Virus record (IMG/VR): IMGVR_UViG_3300032294_001352
Span: 23,877-87,876 of that record
Reading direction: 5' to 3' (one strand)
DNA: 64,000 nucleotides
Source of the DNA: a virus
A program made the translations under genes and the position numbers. Shown here piece after piece: positions 22,493 to 60,334 of the stretch (positions are counted from its first letter, which is position 1; each line of letters opens with the position of its first letter). The notes below the pieces were generated by a model that saw only the letters and a program-made list of their open reading frames with translations, was not told the DNA's origin and did not search any database.

Positions 22493-22951
22493 ATGGGGCG
22501 CAATCGAAAAAAGTCTGGCGTAGGCGCAGTGACTGCGGCACCGGCACCACCGGAGCGTGGTGGTGAGCGTGTGCGAATGGATCGTGCGTTCAATCAACTT
22601 CCGGTGGATCGCATCATTCAAGAACTGCGTGACAACGTCAGTTTTAACCTACCAGACGTAGAAGACACGTACCGTGAGCGTGACACCGGATTCTCTATAG
22701 ATAACCGTCAGGAAATGCAAGACTTCATTGACCAGTTGATGAGTGCGAAGCGGCAAGATGGTTCATGGGATATGAACGCACTGGATGCAGCAGCGCAATA
22801 CTTCCAAGACGCTCCGTCACGCGAAGTGTTTTTCCCTGATAATAAAGCAAGAATTGGTGACTTTGGTGAGGAACTGGCTGGCTTCTTACGAGATGTGCGG
22901 CAAGCGTATGAACGTGGTGGTGACGAGGCAGTTCGTCAGTTAGGAGTGTAG
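22493..22951 (+). CDS. MGRNR-tag protein 1 (acidic helical cargo)
   Basis: Begins MGRNRKKSGVGAV. Confidence 0.75.
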   Translation: MGRNRKKSGVGAVTAAPAPPERGGERVRMDRAFNQLPVDRIIQELRDNVSFNLPDVEDTYRERDTGFSIDNRQEMQDFIDQLMSAKRQDGSWDMNALDAAAQYFQDAPSREVFFPDNKARIGDFGEELAGFLRDVRQAYERGGDEAVRQLGV

Positions 22952-22952
22952 T

Positions 22953-23849
22953 ATGCCATTTGTGATGCAAGAGCGACCAGACGGCCGGATTAACGTCGTC
23001 AATCCAATTACTGGGGAAGTCAAAGGCACGCACAAGAACAAGCGGCAAGCGTTGGCACAGATGCGTGCGTTGTACGCCAATGTACCAGATGCAATGCAGA
23101 AGCGTCGTAACAATGAACCGACCAATCCGCAACTGTGGATGCAGGCCAAGAACCAGGCTAAGCGTCGATTCACGGTGTATCCATCAGCCTATGCCAATGC
23201 GTGGGCAGCACGGTGGTATAAGGAGCATGGAGGTGGATGGAAAGAAGCATCATCACCACCGACGGAAACGCGTGATCCACGGAGCGTACAGAAAGATCTG
23301 CGTGAGTGGTTTAAGGAAGACTGGGTGGACATCTCTAAGCCTATCCGTGAGAACGGAAAGATTGTTGGCTATGAGCAATGCGGCAGGGCTGAGGCTGAGG
23401 CCTCTGAGGGTGGTTATCCCAAGTGTCTGCCCAAAGCCAAAGCAATGAAGTTGTCAGAGATGGACCGGTTGAAACTGATTGCACGGAAGCGTCGTGCTGG
23501 TACGCCAACGGATGGCAAACCTATCATGACAAGCAGCATGACGAAGAAAGCGGCAACGGCTAAGGCACTCTTACAGAAGATGCAGCGGATGTATCAACCT
23601 GAGGAATGGGTGGACATTACCAAGCCTATCCGTGACAACGCAGGATTGATTGTGGGCTTTCAAGATGTCACCTACAAAAAGGAAGCCAAGTTTCCTATGC
23701 GTCGTCAGCAGGCTGTCAAGATGACGGAGCAAGAGCGGCAAGCACTTATCCGCAATCGCTTTGGCCACATGCTTACGGATGATGGTGTACCAGTTGCGTC
23801 AAAGAAAGAAAAGACCATGAAGAAGTATGGTCGGTACAAGCGTCAGTAG
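22953..23849 (+). CDS. Multi-module basic phage protein (DUF5872-like modules)
   Basis: Modules GTHKNKRQALAQMRALY, YPSAYANAWAARWYKEHGG and LREWFKEDWVDI...CGR...YPKCLP, plus a degenerate copy EEWVDI. Confidence 0.65.
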   Translation: MPFVMQERPDGRINVVNPITGEVKGTHKNKRQALAQMRALYANVPDAMQKRRNNEPTNPQLWMQAKNQAKRRFTVYPSAYANAWAARWYKEHGGGWKEASSPPTETRDPRSVQKDLREWFKEDWVDISKPIRENGKIVGYEQCGRAEAEASEGGYPKCLPKAKAMKLSEMDRLKLIARKRRAGTPTDGKPIMTSSMTKKAATAKALLQKMQRMYQPEEWVDITKPIRDNAGLIVGFQDVTYKKEAKFPMRRQQAVKMTEQERQALIRNRFGHMLTDDGVPVASKKEKTMKKYGRYKRQ

Positions 23850-23863
23850 CACTGAGGAAACAC

Positions 23864-24691
23864 ATGGGAAGAAATCGCAAACCATCTCGGGAAGTTGCAG
23901 CACCTGCGGCAAGTGTGGAGTCCGTGAGCAAACGGATTAACACCACGCTTGAAGACGCACTCTGGTCCATGTCCACACAAGGCCTCATCTATGATGGCGA
24001 GTACGTGGTGCGTGACAATCTGGCCGACGAAGCCTTTCGAGATGGAATGCGTTATCTGGGGCTGAATCCAGATCGGCCTCGCGATGTGGAGATTATTGCG
24101 GCAGCCATAGGAATCTTTGGCGAGGAAGAAAGTGACATCTACGTGCGCCCAGCAGATGCTCAGTACGATATGGGAATCATATCCATGAGCATGGCTGCAG
24201 AAGCCCAACGTGGATTCAAAGTGCTGCCAGATAAAGTGGTCGTGGAAAACGTGTCATTTGCCAAAGGCCTCACTCCGTCAGACAACATTGGCTATGCAAT
24301 GCTCGTGCGGCAAGCGTGGGCACTCCGAAAGATCGGTGAGCGATTAGGCAAACCAGTGGTAGTCAGCACGTCAGCACTCAGTGATGATGACTACTGGAAA
24401 GGCGTGCAAGTGTGGCCAAAGATGGGCTACAACTTCCCACTCACAGGTATTATCCGTGAGCGTGCCATGGCCAATGGCTTCCAAGCACGCAACACTCCGG
24501 AACTGATGACTGAAGTCAATGCCGCAGGCGAAACAGGATACGATGCGTGGGGCAGGATCGTTAGTGAGGCGTTGAAATACATGCCAGACAAAGAACTCCG
24601 TATCCGTGGCAGCATGACGGTGACGGATGACAATGATACTGGACTTCAGGTGTTGTTGAACTATGGGCGGCAAAAAGGAATATTGGAGTAG
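23864..24691 (+). CDS. MGRNR-tag protein 2, GNAT-like cargo
   Basis: MGRNRKPS start; IGYAMLVRQ...GVQVWPKMGYNF. Confidence 0.75.
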   Translation: MGRNRKPSREVAAPAASVESVSKRINTTLEDALWSMSTQGLIYDGEYVVRDNLADEAFRDGMRYLGLNPDRPRDVEIIAAAIGIFGEEESDIYVRPADAQYDMGIISMSMAAEAQRGFKVLPDKVVVENVSFAKGLTPSDNIGYAMLVRQAWALRKIGERLGKPVVVSTSALSDDDYWKGVQVWPKMGYNFPLTGIIRERAMANGFQARNTPELMTEVNAAGETGYDAWGRIVSEALKYMPDKELRIRGSMTVTDDNDTGLQVLLNYGRQKGILE

Positions 24692-24694
24692 CAC

Positions 24695-25816
24695 ATGGGC
24701 AGGAATCGACGTAAAGCCGGAGTAGGTGCTGTGGAGCGTGCAGTCTATGACATCTTTGGCAACATCATTGGCCAAGAAGATGACGTTGCTCCTACTCCTA
24801 CGGAAACCATCACTACCATATCCGATCCTGACTTTGAACACGTAGATACCACCGTGTTCAATCCTGTGGCATACTCTGCAACGTTACAAACTATGCTCAA
24901 AGAGCAATATGCTGATATGAATCAAGTGATCTCTATAGGAATGGAGTATTTGAAATCTATATCTGGCAATTCTCAGGATGACTGGATAATAAATAACATG
25001 CCGCAAGTACAAACTGTAAAAGGAATGATTGCATTAGGATTAGATCCTCAAGTACCGTCTGATAGACGTTTATATACTGATTTAATATCAGGAACAAGCA
25101 ATTTTTATTCAGGTAAGTGGAATCCCTCACCTGAAGAAAGAAAGGAAATGCGAAAGCAAGATGCATCTGTACCTGATACTGGAGATGTAGAGTTTGAAGT
25201 AGGATTCAGCAGACGCATTAAAGTAGATAATCCAACAAAAGTAGTAATATCCAATGTGTCATTTTCAGCATCAAAGACTGCTCCTCCAGGAATTGGCTAT
25301 ATGATGATTGCACGTCAGATTAGTGCCGCGCGTCAACTTGCAAAAAAATTAGGAAAACCAGTAGAGATTGAAACAACTGCTCATAACTCAGAACAATCAC
25401 AAAAAACAAAGAAGGGTAATACCGGTTTTCACGTTTGGCCAAAACTTGGCTATGTCTTTGAGATTCCTGAAACCGTCAAAGTTGAATTGCGTCGCATGGG
25501 ATTTACAGACAAACAAATGAACAATTCAGCAACACTGATGCAAAGCCGAAATCCACAAGGCCAACTTGGTTTTGACGTGTGGAGTAAAGCACTAGTAGCA
25601 GAAGGTGATAGTAAGTGGGCTGTGAATGGAAGAACAGTCATAAATCCGAATGCATCAACACCATCACCTGCTGAGCAAGTCACGATTGCCTACGGAAAGC
25701 GCAAAGGCTATCTCAAAATGCAGCAGAATAAGCGGCAAAACAATGACGTGTTCCTCAGTTCAGAAGATGACGCAATCCTACGTGACGTGTGGGCTTCCAT
25801 GGGAAGATTGGAGTAG
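24695..25816 (+). CDS. MGRNR-tag protein 3, GNAT-like cargo
   Basis: MGRNRRKAGVGAVERAVYDIFGN start; GIGYMMIARQ...GFHVWPKLGYVF. Confidence 0.8.
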   Translation: MGRNRRKAGVGAVERAVYDIFGNIIGQEDDVAPTPTETITTISDPDFEHVDTTVFNPVAYSATLQTMLKEQYADMNQVISIGMEYLKSISGNSQDDWIINNMPQVQTVKGMIALGLDPQVPSDRRLYTDLISGTSNFYSGKWNPSPEERKEMRKQDASVPDTGDVEFEVGFSRRIKVDNPTKVVISNVSFSASKTAPPGIGYMMIARQISAARQLAKKLGKPVEIETTAHNSEQSQKTKKGNTGFHVWPKLGYVFEIPETVKVELRRMGFTDKQMNNSATLMQSRNPQGQLGFDVWSKALVAEGDSKWAVNGRTVINPNASTPSPAEQVTIAYGKRKGYLKMQQNKRQNNDVFLSSEDDAILRDVWASMGRLE

Positions 25817-25819
25817 CAG

Positions 25820-26893
25820 ATGGGCAGAAACCGGAAAAAGGCTGGTGTGGGCGCGGTTGAACGTGCTATCTACGATATTTTTGGCAACGTGATTGGCCAA
25901 GAAGATGAGAATGCGGCACCTGCTCCGGTGAGCGATCAACCAGTCATTCTTACCGGAGCGGAACTCACGCGCCAGTTAGGTGACACCAGTGGATTCTCAC
26001 CCAATGTCCGGAAGTTGTTCACTGACGTGGAATCACCTATCGTCACCAATGATCCGCGCGTACAAAAGAACATGCGGCAACTGGGATTGGATGACACCAA
26101 TCCTGAGCATCGCCGAATCTTTCGCATTCTGTTTGGCTTACATGAAGGCACTGGGAAAATGGAGCATCCCAATCCGGCCATCTTGGTGAATGATGACCAA
26201 GAGATTATAGACGCCGATGCCGCATTCTCCGTTGGATCACGTGGGAAGTTCGCAGGTGTGGATCGTGCAGCAAACTCCACAATGCGTCTGGCCATCATCA
26301 AAGGCGATAACGTCATCATTGAGAATCACACCTACGTGATGACGGATCCGAATGAGCAGATGCAAGGTGCTGGCTATGCCATGCTCCGGATGCAGGCCTA
26401 TGCCGCACGCAGACTCAATGAGATAACTGGGCGCAACGTCACCATCCGGACCACAGCACTCTCACGAGATGCACGGCTTGATCCGAATGGGATAGAGTGG
26501 GTGGGTGCGCATACGTGGCCAAAGTTAGGCTATGACTTTGACTTCAACGATCCGCGCGTGCCTAGTGATTTGGTGGAATCACTCCGTGCCGCAGGCTTCA
26601 AGAGTATGCGTAGCAGCGACTTGATGAGTGAAGTCAACGCAGATGGTGAGCGTGGCTATGACGTGTGGCCGTTCATTGTGGATGAGATTCTAAGCATTGA
26701 TGGCCAACTGAGCATGAAAGGCACCATGAACGTCACCAATGACAACGATCGTGGACTCCAAGTCATGCAGAACTATGGGCGGCAAAAGGGAATCGTTAAG
26801 GGTGGCACGACGCGCAACGTGGGTGGCGTGGATGGGATTACACTGACTGGGATGGATAACGATATTCTTCGCCAACTGTGGCAGCAGATATAG
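25820..26893 (+). CDS. MGRNR-tag protein 4, GNAT-like cargo
   Basis: MGRNRKKAGVGAVERAIYDIFGN start; QGAGYAMLRMQ...GAHTWPKLGYDF. Confidence 0.8.
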   Translation: MGRNRKKAGVGAVERAIYDIFGNVIGQEDENAAPAPVSDQPVILTGAELTRQLGDTSGFSPNVRKLFTDVESPIVTNDPRVQKNMRQLGLDDTNPEHRRIFRILFGLHEGTGKMEHPNPAILVNDDQEIIDADAAFSVGSRGKFAGVDRAANSTMRLAIIKGDNVIIENHTYVMTDPNEQMQGAGYAMLRMQAYAARRLNEITGRNVTIRTTALSRDARLDPNGIEWVGAHTWPKLGYDFDFNDPRVPSDLVESLRAAGFKSMRSSDLMSEVNADGERGYDVWPFIVDEILSIDGQLSMKGTMNVTNDNDRGLQVMQNYGRQKGIVKGGTTRNVGGVDGITLTGMDNDILRQLWQQI

Positions 26894-26917
26894 GCGGCAT
26901 GTAGATAGGAGATTGCT

Positions 26918-28072
26918 ATGAGTTTTGCGATTGACATCCGACAGTGGAAGACGGTAGAAGCCTTTGAGGCGCATCTGAATGCACACGATCCTGCTATCTG
27001 TGATTGGGTGCAAGGCATCGTGATTCATCATACGTGGCGACCACTGCCCAGTCAGTGGCGTGGCCGATCGTCGATTGAGGGAATGAAAGCGTACTATGAG
27101 CGGCAGTCACCACCGTGGACTGCTGGACCACACTTGTTCATTGTGACTGGCAGCCCTAATCCGTCTGATGACGGTATCTGGCAGATGACTCCGCTCAACA
27201 TGGTGGGTGTACACGCTACGGTGTGTAATCCAACAACGTGGGGCATTGAAGTGGTGGGTGACTATGATGATGAACCGTGGACATTTTCTACCAAGCAGTT
27301 GGCGGTTGGTGCTGCTGCGGCATTGGCCAAGTGGCGCGGAATCATCATCTCACCTCAGACGGTAAAAGGCCATCGGGATTGTAAGAGCAGCAAGTCATGT
27401 CCAGGCAATGCCATCAACATGCAGCAGGTGCGTGACTGGATTAACGCAGAGATCAATGGCACACCAGCGCGTGAACCAATCACGGCTGACAGTCAGATCC
27501 TTGCGGCACCACGATGCAGCATGGAAACTGCGTTGGATTACATCATGAACCGGAATCCACGGCCTGCGTACACGCTGAGTGATTTCTCTATTCATATCCT
27601 GCCTGCATACTGGCAGTTAGGCAAACTGACTGGTGTTGATCCGTGTATTGCCATTGCCCAAGCAATCCATGAAACGGCCAACTTTAGCAGTTGGTGGTCG
27701 TTGCGCCCACGACGCAATCCTGCTGGGATCGGGGTGACAGGCCAATCTAGCCGAACCGCGCCACATCCTGAGGAAGTCAACAAGTGGGCATATGACAAAG
27801 ACGTGAACCTGTGGAAGTTCGGTTTATCGTTCCCATCATGGCAGGTGAGTGCATTGGCACACATGGGCCGATTATGTGCATACGCAACCAAGCCTGCTGA
27901 ACGCTCACCAGAGCAACAGAAGATTGTAGAACAAGCATTGATGATGCGATCGCTTCCATTGGCCTTACAGGGAAGCGCGCCGGTGCTCTTTGGCCTTAAT
28001 GGGAAGTGGGCTTATCCTGGCACCACGTATGCCCAACGGATTGCTGCCATAGCCACAGAGATGGCATTCTAG
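26918..28072 (+). CDS. Endolysin: N-acetylmuramoyl-L-alanine amidase (Amidase_2) plus glucosaminidase-like domain
   Basis: IVIHHT...PHLF...GVHA...GIEVVG...GHRD...KSCPG zinc-amidase motifs; C-terminal IAQAIHETANF...RNPAGIG...KWA. Confidence 0.85.
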   Translation: MSFAIDIRQWKTVEAFEAHLNAHDPAICDWVQGIVIHHTWRPLPSQWRGRSSIEGMKAYYERQSPPWTAGPHLFIVTGSPNPSDDGIWQMTPLNMVGVHATVCNPTTWGIEVVGDYDDEPWTFSTKQLAVGAAAALAKWRGIIISPQTVKGHRDCKSSKSCPGNAINMQQVRDWINAEINGTPAREPITADSQILAAPRCSMETALDYIMNRNPRPAYTLSDFSIHILPAYWQLGKLTGVDPCIAIAQAIHETANFSSWWSLRPRRNPAGIGVTGQSSRTAPHPEEVNKWAYDKDVNLWKFGLSFPSWQVSALAHMGRLCAYATKPAERSPEQQKIVEQALMMRSLPLALQGSAPVLFGLNGKWAYPGTTYAQRIAAIATEMAF

Positions 28073-28157
28073 CAGCCGGATGCTCCGTGATCAGGCTAAT
28101 AACCATCTGATTCCAACGCGGAAAATCACCAATTTTCTGTGATTCTCAAATTGGTAC

Positions 28158-28186
28158 TTGACAAACTATACATTTTGTCTTACAAT
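28158..28186 (+). promoter_or_regulatory. Sigma70-type promoter for the ncRNA cluster
   Basis: TTGACA-17 nt-TACAAT followed by GACTGACAT, as at 46591 and 60760. Confidence 0.75.
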
Positions 28187-28240
28187 GACTGACATGAGGG
28201 AATGGCGTGTGGGGAGAGAAAAAACCGTGACTGACACTCA

Positions 28241-28480
28241 CGAGTACCTCACACTTAATGGTGAGAGATGGTAGTGGTTGCCATCCAGATGTGTTGACTC
28301 GCAATCAACATGTTGACACCAGCCGTAGGTGGTGCGACCACCTCAGCAGACCTACAAGCATTATCGGACTCCGTGCGCTGGTAATGTGGAAGGCGGGCAC
28401 CTCGAAGAAAGAAAGCGTCGCACAGGAACTGGTACTCGGTATTACACTGAGTAGGTGGGCAACCTGCCAAATAGCCCACC
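28241..28480 (+). ncRNA. Putative structured non-coding RNA
   Basis: Closing stem GAGTACC (28241)/GGTACTC (28431) encloses several hairpins; followed by a GGTGGGC/GCCCACC hairpin; no convincing CDS. Confidence 0.4.
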
Positions 28481-28485
28481 GTTAT

Positions 28486-28618
28486 GGGGATGCTCTGGTA
28501 TTGACAGGGTGATTTGGCAATCAGTAGCGATAACTGCCCACGGGAAGACGCGAACGCTGCCTGCCTTTAATGGTGATAATCATTCTGGACTGCGGTTCGA
28601 CTCCGCACATCTCCACCA
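28486..28618 (+). ncRNA. Miniature tmRNA-like RNA (tRNA-like domain, 133 nt)
   Basis: Acceptor GGGGATG/CATCTCC-A-CCA with G3.U; T arm TGCGG-TTCGACT-CCGCA; helix CAGGGTGATT/AATCATTCTG; no D stem. Confidence 0.8.
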
Positions 28619-28620
28619 AT

Positions 28621-28782
28621 GCTCAGGTTTCGTTTGGGAAGTTTGACAGGGAGCGCAATCCTAGGATGTTATCGCCGATCCGGCCAATCGGATAGTGGAA
28701 TCCCGACGGGGATAGAGTGAGAAATCATCCGCTCACCAAATTGCGCCCACATACGCAGGTTCAATTCCTGCCCTGAGCACCA
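28621..28782 (+). ncRNA. Second tRNA-like RNA (162 nt) with acceptor stem, T arm and a large branched insert
   Basis: GCTCAGG/CCTGAGC-A-CCA; T arm GCAGG-TTCAATT-CCTGC; helix GCGCAAT/ATTGCGC. Confidence 0.7.
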
Positions 28783-28818
28783 CTACTACTATTACTCGCT
28801 GACCAGTAAGGAGCGCCC

Positions 28819-29133
28819 ATGAACAAGCACAAGTCACTGAATGAGATGATGGCTGAGAAAAACATCAAGATGGTCGTGAATAATTTCATGGTTGGTGATT
28901 TATCCGTGCGCGTGGTGGCCAACAACATGGGCCATGACTTTGAGCGGATGGCGAACAACCAGTGCAACATGGCCATCTACATCATCCGTGAGCGTGATTG
29001 GGATGAGGAGCAAATCATCATGCTTGGTGGTGAGTCACTGGTGATGGATATTGAAGACCATGACCAAGTGCTGGTCCATGCAAAACTGTTGCTTAGCCGT
29101 CTGATGTTGTCGCTGCTTGATGCAATACAGTAG
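28819..29133 (+). CDS. Hypothetical protein
   Basis: TAAGGAG RBS; 104 aa. Confidence 0.65.
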   Translation: MNKHKSLNEMMAEKNIKMVVNNFMVGDLSVRVVANNMGHDFERMANNQCNMAIYIIRERDWDEEQIIMLGGESLVMDIEDHDQVLVHAKLLLSRLMLSLLDAIQ

Positions 29134-29142
29134 GAGGCGCGT

Positions 29143-29331
29143 ATGAAGATTGTTTCGTGCTCATGCCCACAGTGTCGCGCGTTGATGCGTTCAAAGCATG
29201 AAAGCCGTGCATTGACCAAAGTCACGCGCGCTGCTCGCCGAAACGCAAAGCAGGCCGTTGATCGCATGACACGCACACGCAACTGGGATATGGACATCCC
29301 GACCAAAATCAGCATCCCACCTATTGGCTAA
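29143..29331 (+). CDS. Small basic protein with CxCxxC
   Basis: GGAGG RBS; 62 aa. Confidence 0.6.
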   Translation: MKIVSCSCPQCRALMRSKHESRALTKVTRAARRNAKQAVDRMTRTRNWDMDIPTKISIPPIG

Positions 29332-29350
29332 TCAATCAGCCTGATCGACC

Positions 29351-29378
29351 ATCCCTCACATGATACGTGGGGGATTTT
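29351..29378 (+). terminator. Probable intrinsic terminator
   Basis: ATCCCTCAC...GTGGGGAT hairpin followed by TTT. Confidence 0.5.
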
Positions 29379-29419
29379 GGCGTGTAATCAAATTGTCATC
29401 TTATTTTCAATAAAAACAC

Positions 29420-29476
29420 TTGCAAATTATATAGTTTTCTGCTAGAATGATTTTAGGTTGAATTGCAAGTAAGGAG
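29420..29476 (+). promoter_or_regulatory. Repeated phage promoter with leader and RBS
   Basis: TTGCAA-17 nt containing TATATAGTTT-TAGAAT...AGGTTGAA...TAAGGAG. Confidence 0.75.
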
Positions 29477-29483
29477 AACGCTT

Positions 29484-29768
29484 ATGACCATGACTGTTAC
29501 ACCAGCCCAAATCGCTCGCCAAGCCTTCGTGGCTGCCCAGGTGGCCATCATCCGCGCTAGCGAGCATCCTCAGGCATCACGATGGGTGAATGCTGTTATC
29601 CGCGCCGGTGAGGCCTTTGCGACGCGCGCTGGTCGCAAGGAGATGGCTGAGCGTTGCGCCACGTACAAGACCACGGTGGCCTCATGTGAGTGTGAGGCGA
29701 GTTCCCATGGCAATCCATGTAAGCACCGTGCGTTCGTTCGCTTGGTCCAGAAGTGGGAGGAAGAATAA
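29484..29768 (+). CDS. SWIM zinc-finger protein
   Basis: CECEASSHGNPCKH (CxC...CxH). Confidence 0.7.
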   Translation: MTMTVTPAQIARQAFVAAQVAIIRASEHPQASRWVNAVIRAGEAFATRAGRKEMAERCATYKTTVASCECEASSHGNPCKHRAFVRLVQKWEEE

Positions 29769-29996
29769 ATGAACTTTGATGTCATGGACTTTTCGATGCG
29801 TGAGATGTGGAGCAAACTGACGATGGATGAGCGTCGTCAGTTGCTCCAAGAGCATAAGATGTGGCCTGGTTTCGTAGAACAAGCACCACGGCCAAGCAAC
29901 CAAGATTGCTCGGCTGAGTTCACCAGTGCTGTGGCGTTGCGTGTCAGTCAGAAGCGGAAAGCAGCAGAAGCCAAAGGAAAAATCAATGCCAAATGA
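29769..29996 (+). CDS. Hypothetical protein
   Basis: Coupled to the upstream stop (TAAATG). Confidence 0.55.
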   Translation: MNFDVMDFSMREMWSKLTMDERRQLLQEHKMWPGFVEQAPRPSNQDCSAEFTSAVALRVSQKRKAAEAKGKINAK

Positions 29997-30231
29997 GCAA
30001 CCACCACTACGCACACCCACGACCACGGATTTTGCGCTAGTCAACTTCGCTCGAAACTTAATCGCAGACATGGTAGTGCCTCTCAGCCATGAGGGGCTTC
30101 TACTTGAATCTGTGGTCCGTCTGGTGGCCAAAGAAGAGGGATTGGATGACAATCACACGGCCTTTCTGATAGCCCTAGCACTAGGGAATGTCACTGAGGA
30201 TAATTGGGAATCAACCTACATACCGTTTTAG
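29986..30231 (+). CDS. Hypothetical protein
   Basis: AAAGGA RBS; overlaps the upstream stop. Confidence 0.5.
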   Translation: MPNEQPPLRTPTTTDFALVNFARNLIADMVVPLSHEGLLLESVVRLVAKEEGLDDNHTAFLIALALGNVTEDNWESTYIPF

Positions 30232-30242
30232 GAGGATCACGG

Positions 30243-30455
30243 ATGCAACACTGGGGATGGATAGGAAATTACACCATTGTACGCACTGGCAGCCACGCAG
30301 GCGCAATGGTCAACGGTTCTGTGACGTTTGATCCACAGATGTGTATGTGGAAGTGGCTAGTGATGGCAGATAATGTCAAAGTGCGTGAGGGAATGACGGT
30401 GACTGCGCGGATGGCCGTGCAACAGGTTGATACGTATTTTGAGGAGGAAGTGTAA
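30243..30455 (+). CDS. Hypothetical protein
   Basis: AGGAGG RBS. Confidence 0.55.
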   Translation: MQHWGWIGNYTIVRTGSHAGAMVNGSVTFDPQMCMWKWLVMADNVKVREGMTVTARMAVQQVDTYFEEEV

Positions 30456-30652
30456 TGACCACGATGAAAGACAAGACTAAAGGCGGCAACAAGAAGTTGA
30501 AGACCATTCAGATGACACCAGACTTTGAGCGGAATCTGGCGATCCTGCGTAAGTTTGGCCACACGACGGATGCTAAGGCCATCCGTGACGCTGTGAAGAC
30601 GTTGGCTATGGAGCGCACTGGGGAGTTGACGATTACCAAGCGACAGGGATAG
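30455..30652 (+). CDS. Small DNA-binding protein (RHH-like)
   Basis: KTIQMT...LAILRKFG..TDAKAIRDAV pattern. Confidence 0.5.
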   Translation: MTTMKDKTKGGNKKLKTIQMTPDFERNLAILRKFGHTTDAKAIRDAVKTLAMERTGELTITKRQG

Positions 30653-30655
30653 ACC

Positions 30656-30982
30656 ATGAGCGTGTTGAAAGATGAGTGCGGCAAAGATGTAGCCATTGTG
30701 GATCGGAATGAACACGGTGGCTACATTGTACGCTTCCAAGTGCATGGCCTTTGGTTTGACATCTCATCGGTGTGCAACCAGCACAATGATTTGATGTATC
30801 AACGCTGCATAGAAAAAGCCATGCTCCAACTAGAATGGTATGCAGGATGTGATGACGTGCTGAACCGACGTGCGGCACTGCAGATCAAGTCAATCACCAC
30901 TGGACCAGTACCACCAATGATGAGCAGCACCGTGATGAGCGTGCTGAGCATGTGGCGAGATTTTCAGCGATCAGGTAGGTGA
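30656..30982 (+). CDS. Hypothetical protein
   Basis: 108-aa ORF in the operon. Confidence 0.5.
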   Translation: MSVLKDECGKDVAIVDRNEHGGYIVRFQVHGLWFDISSVCNQHNDLMYQRCIEKAMLQLEWYAGCDDVLNRRAALQIKSITTGPVPPMMSSTVMSVLSMWRDFQRSGR

Positions 30983-31076
30983 TTTGCAAAAAATGCAATT
31001 CATTTGCGATTATCGCAATTCATTTGCAAAAAGTGCAAAGAAACATTTGCATTTTATATATTGTATGTGCTATACT
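30983..31076 (+). promoter_or_regulatory. TTGCAAA-rich region with palindrome TTGCGATTATCGCAA and promoter for the replication operon
   Basis: Palindrome at 31004-31018; TTGCAT-18 nt-TATACT. Confidence 0.6.
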
Positions 31077-31126
31077 ACGAACGTGGTCATGCACCACTAG
31101 TCAACTAATCAGTTAAGGAGAAAGCC

Positions 31127-31858
31127 ATGAGTTTCGAGATGTTGCGTGAACCGTTCCACCCTGACCAGTTGGAGTTCAAGGTGGAAGTCAAGAGCAAAGA
31201 CGGCCAGAAAGGCCAAGCCAGCACCTACGTTGATCCTCGGCGCTATCAGGAGCGTCTGGATGATGCGTTTGGTCCGGAGAACTGGGATGTGGAATATCGT
31301 CCACTTGGGGCTAACGTGAGTGGTTCAGTCACTGAGGATGGCGAGAAACGCAGTGCATCAGGCGCGGTTATCGCACGTCTGACCATCCGCTACAACGGCC
31401 AAACCGTGGTCCGTGAGGAAGTGGGAGAGTTTGGTGGTGAGGGAAAGTCACAGTATCCAACGGCTACAGCCCAAGCGTTTAAGCGTGCGTGTGCTGCCTT
31501 TGGCCTTGGTCGCTACTTGTACTTCCTGCCAAAGATGTGGGGAGCAATCAACCAGTATCGCCAGTTTGAGGAAGCCGAGATTGAGCGCTTCAAGAAGATG
31601 TGCCCAGCACCGGCCAAAAGCCCACAGAACAAGCCACAAGCCACGGAAAAGGCACAACCTGCACGCACCTACCCACAAGGCCAGGAAAGCGTACAGCAGG
31701 CCAAAGCAGTGGCACGCTTGGGGCAGTTGCTCCAACAGGCTGATGACATGGGAGCGCATTTCTCATACGTGCCAGAAAACTGGCGCACGCTCGGCTACCA
31801 AGAGTTGGTCCAACTTGGTCAGCGGATTGGGAAAGATCTTGCAGACATGAAAGAGTAG
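31127..31858 (+). CDS. Sak/Rad52-family single-strand annealing protein
   Basis: LREPF...YVDPRRYQERLDDAFGPENW...AFKRACAAFGLGRYLY. Confidence 0.9.
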   Translation: MSFEMLREPFHPDQLEFKVEVKSKDGQKGQASTYVDPRRYQERLDDAFGPENWDVEYRPLGANVSGSVTEDGEKRSASGAVIARLTIRYNGQTVVREEVGEFGGEGKSQYPTATAQAFKRACAAFGLGRYLYFLPKMWGAINQYRQFEEAEIERFKKMCPAPAKSPQNKPQATEKAQPARTYPQGQESVQQAKAVARLGQLLQQADDMGAHFSYVPENWRTLGYQELVQLGQRIGKDLADMKE

Positions 31859-31861
31859 ACC

Positions 31862-33279: not shown

Positions 33280-33280
33280 C

Positions 33281-34465
33281 ATGGACATTCAACGCAAAGC
33301 CAAAATTGCGGCACAACAGACGTTGTTTGATGTGCAACCAAACTGGAAAGACTTCTGGTGGGATATGCCTGCCTTTGAGCAGCAGGATGCAAGAGCAACC
33401 AAGACCATCAGTGTTCACTTCCTGACCATGGATGACTTCTATGAGTTTTGTGCGGCACTTGATGTGAAGTTGACTCCGAAGTCACTCTCACTCTGGTACC
33501 CACCACAGCAACGGATGAATGGTGAGTATCTGTACACTGGACCACAGGTAGATGCACGCTATCCGGTGTGCATTCCATCCAAGGGGCGCTGGGATAACCA
33601 CAAGACTGCGGCAGCACTTGATCGGATGGGTGTGTCATACCGGTTCTTTGTAGAAGACACAGAGGCTGATGCGTACATCAACGCACTTGGGGCTGAGCGT
33701 GTGGTGGTCATGCCATTCCATGATCTTGGCCAAGGCAGCATTCCGGCCAGAAACTTTATCTGGGAATGGGCAGTCACGCATGGATATAGGCGGCATTGGG
33801 TGATGGATGACAACATCGTCAACTTCAAGCGGATCACTAACAATCGACGAGTGAGAGTTCGCACTGGCATGTTTTTCCGTGCCATTGAGGATTTCGTGGA
33901 TCGCTATGACAACATTGCGTTGGCTGGTCCGCACCATGACGGTTTCGTCAAAGATCGCTATCCTCACAAGCCACCAGTCATCTTTAATCGCCGCATCTAC
34001 TCATGCATCCTGATAGACTCCACACTTCCATACCGGTGGCGTGGAAAGTACAACGAGGATACCGATTTGAGTCTGCGTGTGCTAAAAGATGGCTACTGCA
34101 CAGCCTTGTTTGCTGCGCTCACCATGCACAAGCCCACGACTGCTGGCGGCAAGGGGAAACCGATGAAAGGGGGAAACACCGATACCGTTTATAACACGAC
34201 TGATTACCGATTGGCCTTTGCTCAGTCACTGAAAGAGCAACACCCTGACGTGGTGGAAGTGACGTGGAAGTTTAATCGCTGGCACCACCATGTGGATTAC
34301 ACACCGTTCAAGAACAACCAGCCTATACTCAGAGCGGACATCACGCCAAAGCCTGGCACCAATGAGTATGAGATGCGTTTAGTCCGTGCGGCAAGTGGTG
34401 ACATTGACGTGGATCTTGATGACGATATTGATACTGACATGATAGAAGATGAGGATGACGTATGA
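33281..34465 (+). CDS. TAGT/GREB1-like DNA glycosyltransferase (GT-A fold)
   Basis: YPVCIPSKGR, ARNFIWE, HWVMDDNI, RIYSCILI, WRGKYNEDTDLSL, KGGNT motifs; start taken at ATG 33281. Confidence 0.8.
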   Translation: MDIQRKAKIAAQQTLFDVQPNWKDFWWDMPAFEQQDARATKTISVHFLTMDDFYEFCAALDVKLTPKSLSLWYPPQQRMNGEYLYTGPQVDARYPVCIPSKGRWDNHKTAAALDRMGVSYRFFVEDTEADAYINALGAERVVVMPFHDLGQGSIPARNFIWEWAVTHGYRRHWVMDDNIVNFKRITNNRRVRVRTGMFFRAIEDFVDRYDNIALAGPHHDGFVKDRYPHKPPVIFNRRIYSCILIDSTLPYRWRGKYNEDTDLSLRVLKDGYCTALFAALTMHKPTTAGGKGKPMKGGNTDTVYNTTDYRLAFAQSLKEQHPDVVEVTWKFNRWHHHVDYTPFKNNQPILRADITPKPGTNEYEMRLVRAASGDIDVDLDDDIDTDMIEDEDDV

Positions 34466-35562: not shown

Positions 35563-35620
35563 TCAGTGAATGCATGGGTGGCTACGCTGCATGGTGTGGC
35601 CACCCACAGGAGCAATACAT

Positions 35621-45956: not shown

Positions 45957-46532
45957 TTATTGCTCCACTTTTGGCAGCACCACTCCGATTTGTGACTGGT
46001 ACTTGCCTTTTTTGTCAGCGTACGACGTGCGGCAGTCACCACCATCCAAGAAGTAGACTTGTGCGATCCCTTCATTGGCGTGAATCCGGATAGCATGGTG
46101 TGACACGTTGCTCAGTTCAATGGTGATGTGGCCCTCCCACTCTGGTTCAAGTGGTGTGCAGTTCACCAGAAGCCCACAGCGTGCGTAGGTTGACTTCCCG
46201 AGCACAATCCCAAGCACGTCACGCGGAATCCGGAAGTACTCTACCGTGCGGCATAACACAAGGCCACCTGGGGGCAGCACGTACTGATCAGCGATAACGT
46301 GCTGAGTGTATTGCTCAATGTTGCGTTCCTTAGGATCGATGATATACGCGCGATCGTCAGACCAGGCTACTGGTGATTCCACGTACTTCCACTCATTGGC
46401 CACACGCATGTCATAACCGTATGACGATACACCGTAGGAGATAACGCCACTGCGTTCCTGCTGCATGACAAACGGTTCAATCATTCCGTTGGCAGCGTGC
46501 GTAATGATCCACCCATCATTCTTGACACCCAT
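45957..46532 (-). CDS. dcd: dCTP deaminase
   Basis: ISYGVSSYGYD, GKSTYARCG, TPLEPEWEG, EGIAQ, YADKKGKYQ. Confidence 0.95.
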   Translation of the reverse strand: MGVKNDGWIITHAANGMIEPFVMQQERSGVISYGVSSYGYDMRVANEWKYVESPVAWSDDRAYIIDPKERNIEQYTQHVIADQYVLPPGGLVLCRTVEYFRIPRDVLGIVLGKSTYARCGLLVNCTPLEPEWEGHITIELSNVSHHAIRIHANEGIAQVYFLDGGDCRTSYADKKGKYQSQIGVVLPKVEQ

Positions 46533-46649: not shown

Positions 46650-46655
46650 CGCCAC

Positions 46656-46772
46656 ATGGACAAGATTCTTCGCAACGCACGCTACGATGATGCCTGTCGC
46701 ACCTACCACACTCGCAAGTTCCGTCGTCGCTACAAGATTGCACTCGCTCGCTACATCAAGGAGGCCAAGTAA
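46656..46772 (+). CDS. 38-aa basic peptide (not in the ORF track)
   Basis: TAAGGAG RBS; MDKILRNARYDDACRTYHTRKFRRRYKIALARYIKEAK; its stop overlaps the next ATG. Confidence 0.65.
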   Translation: MDKILRNARYDDACRTYHTRKFRRRYKIALARYIKEAK

Positions 46773-47098: not shown

Positions 47099-47099
47099 T

Positions 47100-56225: not shown

Positions 56226-56669
56226 TTAAAACAAGTAAAACTTTGCAGGATCTTGGTTGAAGTAGAGCAGCGTTTCCTGTGCCGCACTCTCCCATCCATA
56301 GCAGACCACAGCACGCCAGCCGGATTGCTGAAAGCGCGCCTGCCACCGTGTCTGCTCCTTACTCGCTCGATTGGTTCCCACCTTTAACTCAATGGCCAAT
56401 CCCACGTACCGTGTTGGTGCAACGCACTTGTTGGCACTCAGATACAATGCCGCACTCTTGTCATCCATCGGCACTGCTGATGGCACAGGGATCAAGATGT
56501 CTGGTACACCAGCCTTAACACCCTGTGCTTTGAGTTGTGCAGCCACCGTGATATGGCGATGGCCACCGTTGGGCACATGGAATGCCCACGCTACTTCTGG
56601 TACGCTTCCAGCGATATGTGCGTAGAAGCGAAAGAGATTCGTCTGTGCAACACCTTCTAATTGCCGCAT
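56226..56669 (-). CDS. VRR-NUC domain nuclease
   Basis: FHVPNGG...GVKAGVPD...IELK...Q..W. Confidence 0.85.
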   Translation of the reverse strand: MRQLEGVAQTNLFRFYAHIAGSVPEVAWAFHVPNGGHRHITVAAQLKAQGVKAGVPDILIPVPSAVPMDDKSAALYLSANKCVAPTRYVGLAIELKVGTNRASKEQTRWQARFQQSGWRAVVCYGWESAAQETLLYFNQDPAKFYLF

Positions 56670-56674
56670 GGCCG

Positions 56675-56896
56675 TTACTCACTCTTTGGTGATGTTTCGG
56701 TATTCAAGTTGGGCAGTGACGGAATCCCATCTGGGCGCTGAGCAGATCGCTGAATAAAGTCAATGATTGCGTTGTTGACCACCATTGACTTGTTGGTCGC
56801 CCACCCATTCTTGCATTGCCGCTCAACAAACGTGTTCAGCATCTCAATGCACTCTTTTGTTACCGTGACAGATAGCACCTCTCGTTGACGTGGCAT
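56675..56896 (-). CDS. RHH-like DNA-binding protein
   Basis: LSVTV...L......NKSMVVNNAI. Confidence 0.55.
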   Translation of the reverse strand: MPRQREVLSVTVTKECIEMLNTFVERQCKNGWATNKSMVVNNAIIDFIQRSAQRPDGIPSLPNLNTETSPKSE

Positions 56897-56899
56897 GTG

Positions 56900-57331
56900 T
56901 TACTCCTTATCTTCTTCTAGTGCTGACTGCACATAGTGCAGCGCACGCGCTAACGCATCAATTTGGTTCTGGTGATCCTGAATCTGTTGTTGAAGCACAT
57001 GCCGCAGTCGCTTCTTTGCGTCAATCTCCGTACCACCAGACGCAGTCACAGTCCATGACTCTGACTTGACTGGATCTTCCACGGCTACCGTGGCGATGTG
57101 AAGTGAAGTAGTGGCGTTTGCTGCCTTTGCAGCGCGACGCACAATCTCACTGAGTGGAATTAAGTGCGTGACATCTTTGACGTGTACAGTCATCGTAAGA
57201 TCCCATTCATTGTTGACACAGGTACAAAAGTTACTGCACTCACCACACAGATTGCAGTTGCACCACATAATATGAATGCCGCATGTTTCACACGGCCAGT
57301 CATTGTCATATGGTCCGTGTAGTTCTTCCAT
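56900..57331 (-). CDS. Hypothetical protein with a Cys-rich N-terminus
   Basis: CETC...CNCNLCGECSNFCTC; start uncertain. Confidence 0.45.
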   Translation of the reverse strand: MEELHGPYDNDWPCETCGIHIMWCNCNLCGECSNFCTCVNNEWDLTMTVHVKDVTHLIPLSEIVRRAAKAANATTSLHIATVAVEDPVKSESWTVTASGGTEIDAKKRLRHVLQQQIQDHQNQIDALARALHYVQSALEEDKE

Positions 57332-57393
57332 GTGCGTGTGCTCCGTGGAAGCGTGGGGAGTGCGTTGCACACTCCCCACAATCCGCTCCGTGC

Positions 57394-57951
57394 TTACCAG
57401 CCGTACTTTCGATTGATTGACTCCATGGTGCCAGACATCTTGTTGGCCAGTGAACCGGCTTCTTTGAGTTTCTCAGTTGACGTAGCAAAATCTCCACGCG
57501 CCATTGCTCGGAACGCATCCTCAGTAACGTCTAAGACTTCAGCAACGCGCTCATGGATGCTCATTGCATCATCATCACAGATGGGTGCCGCAACAGCCGT
57601 GTACATCAACTTCACATCCTCAAAACGCTTGTAGGCAGTCACCAAGTCAGCATTGGCCACCATCTGCATTGATTCCGTGAGTGCATTGATAACCACCATT
57701 GTGTCAGTCTTCCATGCATACACGTCATCCTTACACGCAGCAAACGTGTCTACGGTTGGCCGTGGCTTGACCGTTGGGCGCTCCGTTGGTTGCTCCGTCG
57801 GCATGACGGCCACTTCTGCTGCCTGATCAGCCACCGTGGATGAATTGTTGGTTGCTGAACTTGGACCACCAACTGCACGCACGATCACACCCAACAAACA
57901 ACATGACACCAGCACCAATCCCACAATTCCCCACTTCAATCCCTTACGCAT
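57394..57951 (-). CDS. Membrane-anchored/exported protein
   Basis: N-terminal TM, PT linker, helical domain; minus-strand TTGACA...TATGAT promoter at about 58029-58000. Confidence 0.65.
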   Translation of the reverse strand: MRKGLKWGIVGLVLVSCCLLGVIVRAVGGPSSATNNSSTVADQAAEVAVMPTEQPTERPTVKPRPTVDTFAACKDDVYAWKTDTMVVINALTESMQMVANADLVTAYKRFEDVKLMYTAVAAPICDDDAMSIHERVAEVLDVTEDAFRAMARGDFATSTEKLKEAGSLANKMSGTMESINRKYGW

Positions 57952-58267
57952 CGGTTTCTCCCTGCACACTGGTGTGTGCCTAAATCATCAACCCATGCGT
58001 ATCATACACTGTATGACAAAATATGTCAAATGCAAATGACACAAAAAACGCAGGATCTATCTGCGTGTGTTGCTCAGCCTCAGATTTGCACTTTTTGCAC
58101 ACGTTTTGCGATTATTGCAAAAATTGCGATTATTGCAAAACCCTTCCCCCCCTTACTCCTTTTTCTCTCCCCATCCCTTTAAAAAACCCTGCCCCACTCT
58201 TTTTCCTCGATCCCCCCCAACCCCCCACGGAGAGTGTACACTCTCCGTGGCCACGTTGTCAAATCAC

Positions 58268-58996
58268 CTACAATGCTGGTTGCATGATGTTTGCTTGTAA
58301 TCGCGCCTCAGCAGCCTCAACACCACGCACTGCCGCACGCTCTTCCCAGAGCAAGAATCTCCGTTGCGCTTCAAGATCACGCACATTTGTCACAGCACCT
58401 TGTCGTGTATATCGAATGATTGCCTCATCAATATCTCTGATAAGATTCCGCGCTCGCTGTGCTTTTAGGTGACTATCATATAATAACTTAATGGTTTCTG
58501 ATGCAATACGAGTTGGCACTGGTTCAAACGTATGCGTGTATGGAGTGTTAGACATGCGATTAGAAAATCGCACTTGACCAGATGCAAACATATCTGCTTC
58601 CCTATTCATCATGTCTACGGTAGTACGATTAAGGCCATTTGGATTTGCCGCCTCACGACGCAAGGTATCACTCAATGTGAGAATGGCTTGTGATGGATTC
58701 ACGCTTGGTGGAATATCAGTTCGCTCTCTCGTATATTCATCTCGTTGTTCACGATCAAAATCACGCATTGCCGCATACATGTCAGCATCCTGCACATTCT
58801 TCAAGAGAGTACCAACAAAGTTAGGAAAACCGGCTGCACGCAGTTCACGGATTGTTTCATTGACATCTGGCATGTCATTTTGTTTGGTTGGTGCTCCAAG
58901 TGGTACTGGTTCTGCTAGTGGTTGCGATGCAGTTGGTGCTGTAGGTGTTGCTGCACTTACGCCACCTGATCCTGCTTTCTTTCGATTGCGCCCCAT
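58268..58996 (-). CDS. MGRNR-tag protein 6
   Basis: MGRNRKKAGSGGV; GGAG RBS. Confidence 0.75.
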   Translation of the reverse strand: MGRNRKKAGSGGVSAATPTAPTASQPLAEPVPLGAPTKQNDMPDVNETIRELRAAGFPNFVGTLLKNVQDADMYAAMRDFDREQRDEYTRERTDIPPSVNPSQAILTLSDTLRREAANPNGLNRTTVDMMNREADMFASGQVRFSNRMSNTPYTHTFEPVPTRIASETIKLLYDSHLKAQRARNLIRDIDEAIIRYTRQGAVTNVRDLEAQRRFLLWEERAAVRGVEAAEARLQANIMQPAL

Positions 58997-59167
58997 GGTT
59001 AATCTCCATATCACTTAGGCCATTTGTCATCATTGTATAGGTATCATCAAGAGCAAGTGCGTAAAACCACTGATGCACCAGACTACTTGCGTAATCCAGT
59101 GCATCAGTGGAGGCTGACGTGCAAGGGGGAAACCTTGATGTCACTACCATCATAGCACAAATTGCCG

Positions 59168-60334
59168 CTATCGGTTATAAATAGGAATCTGAAGTGAACC
59201 AATATTGGTTGGGATTTGACTGGCCAAATAGTTGGCCTCACGTCGTTCTGGCGTGTCTGGCAATCTTGCATTTAGGTTGCGTTTTCCACGCTCAATTCGC
59301 TGCATGGTCTTTGCACGCACTTGGCGCATCCGTTGTTGCTCAATTTGCAACGCCATAAAGTTTGCCGCAGTTAAAGGCCTATTCATGAGTGCAAAGTTGC
59401 GTTTAATTTGGTCGTCAATTCCGTTAAGCAACCGGAGTGCGCCATTGAAATCTCTCATATCCTGTGGTCCACGTAACTCAGAAACGGTGATGTTTCGCTT
59501 CTGGTTCGCATAGCCATCACGCTGTGCGTACAGTGCAACACGATCCATTGGCTGTGGAAGTACGCCACCAGCAGCCGTGTATGCTTGCCGCATTCGATCA
59601 ACGTCACGGAGATTGCTTGTGATTTGATTCCACTGATCTTGGAGTGTTTTCATGGCCTGCCAATTCTCACGAGTAGGATTGGCAATGTACGTCTGCTGTG
59701 CATCCACTAAGAAGTGTGCCGCAGGTAAAAATGATTGGTTGTAGGCAATACTTGGATATGCATCTACCGTCTGCTTTTTGAATCCGGTGTTTGATTTCCA
59801 CCGTGCCATTGCGTTGTCAGGATCGGGGAAATCAATGGTATACGTAGGATTTTCAAACGGACCACCAGATGCGTTGAGGAAATACTCATTGCCACTTGAA
59901 TCGCGGATAGGAATGATGGTAAGGCCTTTGTTACGCATCAGTGCAGCAGCACGCGAGAGTTCCATCTCAGGTGCTGGATTGGCCAAGGCCTTGGGAATCT
60001 CATCACCCATGAGGCGCACGTACTCATCTGCCGCACGGCCAATGCGTTCCCAATCAAACTCACCATCAGCGTCACGCATCTGATCGGTGCTAATGGTGGT
60101 GCGTACACCGTCAATGTCTACGTCAAATGACGTGGATGAATAGTCATACTCTTCAGCATCACCACGATCTATTCCACGGATGTACGGTATAACCGTCATC
60201 TGACGGCCATCTGGCAATCGTTTACTGATGCCACCTGCTTCAGAAGCAGTTTGATTGAAATCCCATGGGATAGATTGTACTGACTGAGCAACAATCACCT
60301 CACCAGTTCCTGCTTTGCGTCGATTACGGCCCAT
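59168..60334 (-). CDS. MGRNR-tag protein 7
   Basis: MGRNRRKAGTGEV; TAAGGAG RBS. Confidence 0.8.
   Translation of the reverse strand: MGRNRRKAGTGEVIVAQSVQSIPWDFNQTASEAGGISKRLPDGRQMTVIPYIRGIDRGDAEEYDYSSTSFDVDIDGVRTTISTDQMRDADGEFDWERIGRAADEYVRLMGDEIPKALANPAPEMELSRAAALMRNKGLTIIPIRDSSGNEYFLNASGGPFENPTYTIDFPDPDNAMARWKSNTGFKKQTVDAYPSIAYNQSFLPAAHFLVDAQQTYIANPTRENWQAMKTLQDQWNQITSNLRDVDRMRQAYTAAGGVLPQPMDRVALYAQRDGYANQKRNITVSELRGPQDMRDFNGALRLLNGIDDQIKRNFALMNRPLTAANFMALQIEQQRMRQVRAKTMQRIERGKRNLNARLPDTPERREANYLASQIPTNIGSLQIPIYNR

Follow-up and report, generated by a model that had tools for sequence, protein, structure and literature searches.

Why would a phage begin many otherwise different proteins with the same short peptide? 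The question is raised by a 64,000-nt stretch of viral DNA, positions 23,877 to 87,876 of IMG/VR record IMGVR_UViG_3300032294_001352 (hereafter "the window"), in which seven open reading frames (ORFs), dispersed over both strands, start with the residues MGRNR. An initial annotation, made from the letters of the window alone, proposed that this shared start is a modular tag that addresses effector proteins to the virion or to its DNA. Here, we describe the tag, the proteins that carry it, its distribution in related phages, and the roles that it might play.

A shared N-terminus conserved as protein

The window comprises the last 64,000 bases (genome positions 23877–87876) of one 87,876-bp contig. 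The ends of this contig overlap by ~120 bases, meaning that the contig represents a complete, circularly assembled phage genome. Among the sequencing runs listed as holding DNA of this phage, the labels read "metagenome" or "freshwater metagenome", and no RNA run is included.

A six-frame scan of the window with the regular expression [MVL]G[RGK].R yielded 19 matches, of which exactly seven are ATG-started MGRNR ORFs. Four of these ORFs start on the plus strand (22493, 23864, 24695 and 25820) and three on the minus strand (45130, 58996 and 60334), i.e., at all seven positions where the initial annotation had placed them (Table 1). All seven open with MGRNR[KR][KP] at an ATG codon, and each has a GGAG/GAGG-type ribosome-binding site (Shine-Dalgarno sequence) no more than 20 nt upstream. 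The count of seven is exact for the window and incomplete for the genome. Six further tagged ORFs, at genome positions 2623, 3549, 4386, 5096 and 6396 (+) and 17349 (−), bring the total to 13, whereas amino-acid composition predicts 0.0014 genes starting with M-GRNR among the 141 called genes.

The peptide is conserved more strictly than the DNA that encodes it. Across the 13 copies, codon 2 is GGC (seven), GGG (three) or GGA (three), and codon 3 is CGT (four), CGC (three), AGA (three), AGG (two) or CGA (one). This use of three Gly and five Arg codons bears out the earlier statement that the tag codons differ synonymously. Over the first 21 nt, the mean nucleotide identity of the 13 copies is 74% (range 52–95%), with the peptide nearly invariant. 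The shared N-terminal tag is real, is not explained by chance, and is conserved as protein.

Anatomy of the tag

In this genome, the minimal tag consists of ~13 residues, MGRNR[KR]K[AGS]G.G.V, with a net charge of +3 to +5 over the first 12 residues in all 13 copies. In four of the 13 proteins (24695, 25820, 45130 and genome 4386), this core is followed by a hydrophobic motif, (E/D).(A/K)(I/V)YD(I/V)FGN(I/V)IG, and then by acidic residues; the three extensions to YDIFGN[IV]IG that had been described for the window are present at 24695, 25820 and 45130. Related phages (see below) have a longer form, MGTRTYSRRGVLT..GRRRAGLEAIDIFGN, to which the tag of the window aligns as a deletion variant. Where this genome has Lys as the basic residues, relatives with the MGTRT-type tag mostly have Arg, and their long variant has up to seven Arg within 21 residues. 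Considering all 65 tagged proteins, from this genome and from relatives, the tag is bipartite: its basic core is always present, whereas the (Y)DIFGN.I motif is optional and found in 42 of the 65. Every tagged protein that was aligned has M1 and G2.

An Ala/Pro linker had been noted behind the tag, and the larger set confirms it. In the 25 residues that follow the tag in the 65 proteins, Pro makes up 15.6% of residues, as compared to 4.8% in the remainder of the proteins; the corresponding values are 14.1% and 9.2% for Ala, and 10.3% and 6.5% for Thr. AlphaFold models tag and linker as disordered, with a predicted local distance difference test score (pLDDT) <50 for residues 1–37 of the 25820 protein and residues 1–68 of the 45130 protein.

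Tagged proteins are also depleted of Cys. The 13 tagged proteins have no Cys in 3,787 residues, compared to 136 in 16,336 (0.83%) in 54 other confident genes of the genome (Fisher p 6.5e-13). Eleven of those 54 genes likewise lack Cys, among them the gene for the 1418-aa (amino acid) tape-measure protein (window 2684–6940), itself a protein that exits via the tail. Outside this genome, tagged proteins have 11 Cys in 16,305 residues, and their untagged neighbors have 42 in 3,995. The depletion may be a sign that the proteins travel unfolded or spend time outside the cytoplasm.

The tag in related phages

Relatives of the tagged proteins were found in several ways. A search of a 5.8-billion-protein collection with the 25820 protein returned four full-length homologues, all four tagged, which start with MGTRRKKAG..., MGRNRRKTG... 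or MGTRTYSRRGVLT..GRRRAGLEAI.IFG. A 45-position profile of the tag itself produced 41 hits (E up to 0.001) among 1.84 billion representative proteins. The match begins at residue 1 in 38 of these; the remaining three (P0034, P0042 and P0045) are internal repeats in unrelated proteins. In viral contigs, the MGTRTYSRRGVLT pattern was found in two small contigs (L011 and L012), the exact back-translated MGRNRKKAG pattern matched no stretch, and a portal pattern search gave two short loci. Pattern searches for the largest family of tagged proteins (family A, see below) in viral contigs and for the portal in genome contigs matched 65 and eight patterns, respectively, with no relative confirmed in either case.

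Metagenome loci fetched with a cargo motif (L003–L010) show the tag in arrays, whose ORFs all open with MGTRTYSRRGVLT..GR.RAGLEAIDI(F/L)G. L003 has six tagged ORFs, the near-identical L004 the same six, L009 six, L007 two and L008 one; there are none in L006 or L010, and only a 50-codon chance match in L005. The position of the arrays is informative. In L009, genes for a ParB-like protein, the large terminase subunit and the portal are followed directly by the six tagged ORFs, and in L007 a tagged ORF lies directly behind the portal stop codon. The second array of L003 and L004 repeats the order found at 21945–28072 of the window: a helix-turn-helix (HTH) protein, a tagged ORF, a DUF5872 protein, further tagged ORFs, and an endolysin.

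Combining profile hits, genome copies and loci gives 64 distinct tagged proteins; P0168, added later, makes up the 65 used for linker composition. By BLAST, the 64 proteins fall into 29 cargo clusters: 17 proteins in family A, five JAB-like, five of unknown type, four with HExxH, three zeta-like, five clusters of two to three members, and 19 singletons. Every cargo homologue detected has kept the tag. It is present in all four full-length family A homologues, and a tag-blind search with the JAB-like cargo region found one new homologue (P0168), whose start is MGRNRKTSRGVARVTYDIFGNII.

The form of the tag differs between phages. In other phages, the orthologues of the 60334, genome 6396 and JAB-like proteins bear the MGTRT-type tag. 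The JAB-like gene of L011 is at the syntenic place, after a dCTP-deaminase-like gene and two small genes, yet has the other tag variant. Which variant a protein bears depends on its lineage rather than on its cargo, and the tag changes as a block across unrelated proteins. A block-wise change of the N-terminus on unrelated proteins points to one common, phage-encoded reader.

A different leader was observed in AT-rich phage contigs (GC content 34–39%). Here, a family A domain lies inside a 1448-aa protein (L005:583–4929, +) without a match in Pfam or PHROGs. A leader of ~80 residues, ..LKHLRGRH(N/D)Q.DHAWNRGMG.GG.., forms the N-terminus of this protein and occurs again near its residue 785; it also opens the next ORF (L005:5399–5753, +) and a protein in L010 (L010:975–2222, +). 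Judged by this arrangement, the leader appears to be a further tag system, unrelated to the first, by which the joints of polyproteins are marked as well.

What the tag is attached to

None of the 13 tagged proteins is recognized by Pfam or PHROGs. All-against-all BLAST groups genome 2623, the split pair 3549/4088, and window 23864, 24695 and 25820 into one paralogous family, family A; tagged proteins outside this family have little in common beyond the tag. The split paralogue consists of two overlapping ORFs in different frames (L001:3549–4097 and L001:4088–4375, in genome coordinates) that share 10 nt. A pseudogene, a frameshift site or an error of assembly could account for the split.

Three of the seven window proteins had been described as GNAT-like and one as JAB-like. 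Both assignments find weak, consistent fold matches. The family A model (25820 protein; mean pLDDT 70.7) has only weak Foldseek matches, the best at E 0.018, with acetyltransferases at the head of the list. In an exhaustive VIA search, each of the 50 rows listed is a chain of the GNAT superfamily, with Z from 4.1 to 6.0; the best match is 3tcv_B (Z 6.0, root-mean-square deviation [rmsd] 5.0, 163 residues aligned). With moderate confidence, we predict a GNAT-like fold for family A, and regard catalysis as putative, an acetyl-CoA binding motif and catalytic residues being suggested by eye in the family alignment. For the 45130 protein (pLDDT 72.8), the best 10 VIA rows are all JAB/MPN chains (Z 4.0–5.2), headed by 5ld9_A (Z 5.2, rmsd 3.6, 106 residues aligned); Foldseek gave only RadC (2qlc, E 0.25) and archaeal JAMM1, at E 0.25–0.7. 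Residues E110, D116, H147, H149, S156 and D159 are invariant in the five members of the 45130 family, and E110, H147, H149, S156 and D159 are present in P0168 as well. We take them to be a JAMM-type metal site with the consensus E...HxH...S..D; the H-to-S spacing of six residues in the 45130 protein is presumably one below the JAB/MPN consensus. As modeled, the GNAT-like and JAB-like assignments are plausible but not proven.

Among relatives, 39 tagged proteins were scanned, and the sole Pfam matches were Zeta_toxin and AAA_33, in two of them (E 3e-27). P0021 (E 2.5e-6) and P0030 (E 1.7e-7) match different stretches of the 1440-position PHROG phrog_16619, "minor head protein". Each tagged protein has one recognizable cargo region, the only multi-module case being the distant 1448-aa protein of L005. 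No Phage_Mu_F match was found in any of the 13 proteins (Pfam at E up to 1, 0.05 and 5; PHROGs).

A proposed address for loading into the virion

We lean, tentatively and just short of an even judgement, toward the reading that the tag is an address by which proteins are loaded into the procapsid for ejection with the DNA. According to this model, the core MGRNR[KR]K[AGS]G.G.V, the optional (Y)DIFGN.I motif and the disordered Pro/Ala/Thr linker would together mark virion passengers. One phage-encoded receptor, which could be the portal, the fusion of protease and scaffold, or the inner face of the capsid, would recruit the tagged proteins to the procapsid. Ejected via the tail along with the DNA, they would act at an early stage of infection. 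The lineage would thus carry its proteins singly, each with its own tag, where other phages have a single fused MuF/polyvalent head protein.

Several observations point in this direction. First, the tag is conserved at the protein level, is portable between cargos, and is strictly N-terminal. Second, the cargo resembles MuF/polyvalent sets, as had been suggested: apart from the Zeta_toxin and phrog_16619 matches, the predicted domains overlap with the GNAT, RadC/JAB and zeta-toxin-like kinase domains listed for MuF fusions and polyvalent proteins by Iyer et al. (2017, PMC5512222). Third, the position right behind the portal gene, occupied by tagged ORFs in L009 and L007, is where MuF-type minor head proteins are encoded (PMC5512222). 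Fourth, an S78-type prohead protease fused to a scaffold-like region is encoded beside the capsid gene, meaning that the machinery for a T4-like load-and-trim route exists in this phage. The block-wise change of the tag between lineages, the build of tag, disordered linker and folded cargo, and the depletion of Cys, which the tape-measure protein shares, also count in favor. Virion loading, ejection, a receptor and any tag cleavage are inferences. The shared-tag observation is confirmed, and its reading as a virion address is partly supported.

Other results weigh against loading into the virion. Four of the 13 tagged genes (genome 17349; window 45130, 58996 and 60334) lie on the minus strand among non-structural genes, near a C5 methylase gene and a dCTP-deaminase-like gene and outside any morphogenesis operon. 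No cleavage motif could be defined. A basic N-terminus and a lack of Cys would suit export or binding to nucleic acid just as well. There is no close cultured phage: a megablast search of window 22000–46000 against phage records had no match, a tblastn search of the same records with family A found none, and one with the portal gave ~32% identity at best. Lastly, 80 loci from Alphaproteobacteria-type metagenome-assembled genomes (MAGs), with a capsid protein 57–64% identical to that of this phage, had no shared-N-terminus array within 10 kb, in a test that would miss a single tagged ORF per locus and in which the MG[RT] motif itself was not scanned. ORFs sharing their first hexamer were present at 20 of the 80 loci. 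At 16 of these, the hexamer is MGFATD, which we read as in-frame repeats within one ORF. The other shared starts (L017, L041, L053 and L081) look like locally duplicated genes, and none is an array of unrelated cargo.

Alternative roles for the tag

The tag could instead be the recognition or modification site of a single enzyme, either a protease of phage or host or an acyl/acetyl transferase acting on the N-terminal Gly or on the core. The tagged proteins would then be co-regulated substrates, as in leader-peptide systems, and the tag would not be a sorting signal. This idea makes sense of the invariant M1 and G2, since Met removal would expose Gly, and the genome encodes both the five GNAT-like paralogues and a histone-deacetylase-family protein (PF00850, E 4.1e-28). 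However, the GNAT-like proteins are themselves tagged cargo, and the presence of Lys here but mostly Arg in the MGTRT lineage means that Lys acetylation is not the conserved purpose. Moreover, every tag-bearing contig belongs to the same phage group, and no candidate enzyme is separable from the phage. We consider a common enzyme site unlikely.

To a similar degree, we find it improbable that the basic core is merely an Arg/Lys-rich arm that tethers proteins to phage or host DNA or RNA, with any co-packaging a by-product that involves no protein receptor. The positive charge of all 13 copies, the Arg-rich long variant and the modeled disorder of the tag are all as expected for such an arm. Charge alone, however, needs neither an invariant Met-Gly nor a near-fixed order of residues nor the DIFGN.I motif, and an arm of this kind has no need to switch block-wise between lineages.

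Export is a third option, in which the tag would be an envelope-targeting signal for proteins acting outside the cytoplasm of the producing cell. We think this very unlikely. The near absence of Cys from tagged proteins is compatible with export, as is the endolysin gene at the end of the second array, and S-R-R-G-V-L in the long variant resembles the start of a twin-arginine motif. By inspection, however, no variant has a hydrophobic core after the basic stretch, which is followed by Gly/Ala and then by Arg or the Pro-rich linker. The window variant has R-N-R and no twin arginine, and the S-R-R of the long variant is interrupted by further Arg. The predicted cargo activities (zeta-type kinase, GNAT and JAB) are cytoplasmic.

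Least probable of all, and disfavored, is a functionless shared start left by duplication, 5′-end shuffling or gene conversion, or acting as a translation element at the RNA level: five of the 13 tagged proteins are true paralogues and an exact 14-mer ~41 nt upstream of two tagged genes shows some joint 5′ duplication, but the tag is found on 29 unrelated cargo clusters, is kept between lineages whose cargo is only 23–40% identical, and is nearly invariant as a peptide over DNA of 74% identity, which argues against both recent conversion and an RNA element.

Candidate readers

If the tag is a virion address, which phage protein reads it? The capsid protein belongs to a family of more than 3,139 members, with ~60% identical proteins in MAGs of Stellaceae and other Alphaproteobacteria. 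Since proteins 57–64% identical to this conserved capsid protein occur at loci without tagged arrays within 10 kb, it is not an obvious lineage-specific reader. A complex prediction of the capsid protein with a 45-residue tag gave scores of 0.00 and 0.00 against a mark of 0.32; made without controls, it speaks neither for nor against binding. A fast-evolving scaffold or a C-terminal domain of the portal is a more likely reader than the capsid protein. Two features of these candidates were considered separately:

(i) Scaffold. The S78 protease fused to the scaffold-like region is the only head protease found (Peptidase_S78 and S78_2, E 1.2e-8 and 3.7e-8). The second motif of the tag was evaluated as a mimic of the scaffold C-terminus. 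The likeness extends over four to five residues and a regular-expression scan added no support, leaving it as a lead only.

(ii) Portal. The initial annotation had also linked the tag to a portal-MuF fusion. This idea is not supported: portal residues 437–704 (the C-terminal 268) have no MuF match (Pfam at E up to 5; PHROGs). The sole indication of such a fusion is the depositor's annotation, "portal and MuF-like fusion", of the ~32%-identical portal of an Arthrobacter phage.

Comparison with known systems

Keyword searches of the literature, which do not prove unpublished status, found nothing describing this tag or phage group. Three known systems have a comparable design.

First, in phage T4, the internal proteins vary except in a capsid targeting sequence (CTS), which is conserved (PMC3012670). 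The T4 CTS (on IPI, IPII, IPIII and Alt) is, like the tag described here, a short N-terminal peptide on diverse proteins; the T4 proteins are loaded into the prohead and injected. Both T4 and this phage have a prohead protease. In this phage, however, the protease belongs to the S78 (HK97) type, not the T4 type, and is joined to a scaffold, and the phage looks siphovirus-like, judging from its tape-measure protein and Sipho_Gp37 tail protein. The tag is also longer than the CTS, has two parts, is strongly basic, and is followed by a Pro-rich linker; packaging and cleavage are putative here. By this analogy, the tag appears closest in function to the T4 CTS, but lies outside that system, with no sequence relation established.

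Second, MuF polymorphic toxins have a constant N-terminal module and a variable C-terminal activity, as do the tagged proteins; in the toxins, the constant module specifies delivery via the head (PMC5576092). The polyvalent/MuF proteins (PMC5512222) overlap with the tagged proteins in the predicted GNAT, RadC/JAB and zeta-like cargo, and share with those of relatives the location of their genes just behind the portal gene. Unlike in MuF proteins, the constant part here is a peptide of 13–45 residues and not a folded MuF domain, and unlike polyvalent proteins, each phage has many single-cargo proteins instead of one multidomain protein.

Third, encapsulin targeting peptides, which are usually C-terminal, do their work in a shell that differs from the one considered here, a tailed-phage capsid with portal and terminase to which binding of the tag is only proposed. 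The overall design is similar: a short peptide and a flexible linker direct unrelated enzymes to the interior of an HK97-fold shell (PMC10960027 and PMC10402063).

Genomic neighborhood of the tagged genes

Coordinates of the tagged genes of the window, of their neighbors and of the head genes are collected in Table 1.

Table 1. Tagged genes of the window and other features discussed in the text; positions are those of the window unless marked "genome".
Feature	Position	Strand	Remarks
HTH protein, 181 aa, acidic tail	21945..22490	+	Directly upstream of second tagged array; phrog_645 E 7.5e-27
Tagged protein, 152 aa	22493..22951	+	Short tag MGRNRKKSGVGAV, then Pro/Ala linker; zero Cys; no Pfam/PHROG family
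DUF5872 protein, untagged, inside array	22953..23849	+	PF19197 E 8.6e-7; two internal repeats
Tagged protein, 275 aa	23864..24691	+	Degenerate short tag MGRNRKPS; GNAT-like family A (predicted); BLAST to paralogues E 1e-37
Tagged protein, 373 aa	24695..25816	+	Long tag, core + YDIFGNIIG; GNAT-like family A (predicted)
Tagged protein, 357 aa	25820..26893	+	Long tag, core + YDIFGNVIG; GNAT-like family A (predicted); modeled member
Endolysin closing array	26918..28072	+	Amidase_2 E 1.3e-13; Glucosaminidase E 4.9e-6
Tagged protein, 350 aa	44078..45130	−	Long tag, 40-residue Pro/Ala/Lys linker, JAB/MPN-like domain (predicted), helical C-terminal half
Large terminase subunit	50578..51912	+	Terminase_6N E 6.6e-12; Terminase_6C E 1.7e-7
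Portal protein, 704 aa	51909..54023	+	PF04860 E 9.5e-11
Tagged protein, 242 aa	58268..58996	−	Short tag MGRNRKKAGSGGV, Pro/Ala/Thr linker; no Pfam/PHROG family
Tagged protein, 388 aa	59168..60334	−	Short tag; weakly related to genome 5096 and 16717 proteins and to P0026
DNA-modification set and histone-deacetylase-family gene	33281–34465, 45957–46532 (−), 48642–49313, 49322–50581, 54108–55757 (−); genome 9768–10679		
S78 prohead protease + long acidic region, 824 aa	genome 18943–21417		Basic C-terminal helix ending ..KKALFGRI
Probable capsid protein, 497 aa	genome 21434–22927		phrog_13692 E 1.7e-106; directly downstream of protease fusion

Two untagged neighbors in the second array are conserved in position. 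The HTH protein matches HTH_23 at E 0.0028, below the cut-off, and has a 67% identical orthologue at the same position in L003. The DUF5872 protein is kept at the same place in L003 and L004, with 70% identity. For the 388-aa protein at 60334, a protein atlas gave nothing usable; its weak relative P0026 bears the MGTRT-type tag.

A near-palindromic 14-mer, CTTGTATGATACAA, has exactly two copies in the genome, at window 60362–60375 (−) and genome 5054–5067 (+). Each is 41–42 nt upstream of a tagged gene, and those two genes are weakly related to one another. CTTGTATGATACAA may be a shared promoter or operator. As a class-wide promoter of tagged genes it was rejected, having only these two copies, before two weakly related tagged genes.

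The phage also has a set of DNA-modification genes, encoding a TET-associated glycosyltransferase (TAGT), a dCTP-deaminase-like protein, Mom, a DUF4417 protein and a C5 cytosine methylase; with this gene content, hypermodification of its DNA is probable. No gene for a tRNA or tmRNA was detected by ARAGORN in the window (1–64000).

Implications

What would the tag mean for the biology of these phages? Phage-injected proteins include anti-restriction and host-takeover factors. Beyond T4, P1 and a handful of further model phages, how passengers are chosen is, to our knowledge, mostly unexplained. It is possible, although we would stop short of calling it probable, that these freshwater phages have split a polyvalent MuF-type effector into as many as 13 separate proteins whose tag is read by one co-evolving receptor. 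If so, the tag would be a new natural signal for capsid loading and injection, analogous to encapsulin targeting peptides and able to carry arbitrary proteins. The cargo, i.e., five GNAT-like paralogues and a JAB-like protein here, and zeta-type kinases and HExxH proteins in relatives, would then be an injected first-strike or anti-defense set.

A portable tag would have practical value as well. It would let the injected arsenal of uncultured phages be read from sequence, and in this genome it flags 13 proteins, most of them without an assigned function. The block-wise tag switch on orthologous cargo provides a natural covariation test for the reader. The tag would also give a handle on the capsid-side receptor, and could be put to use in loading phage heads with foreign proteins.

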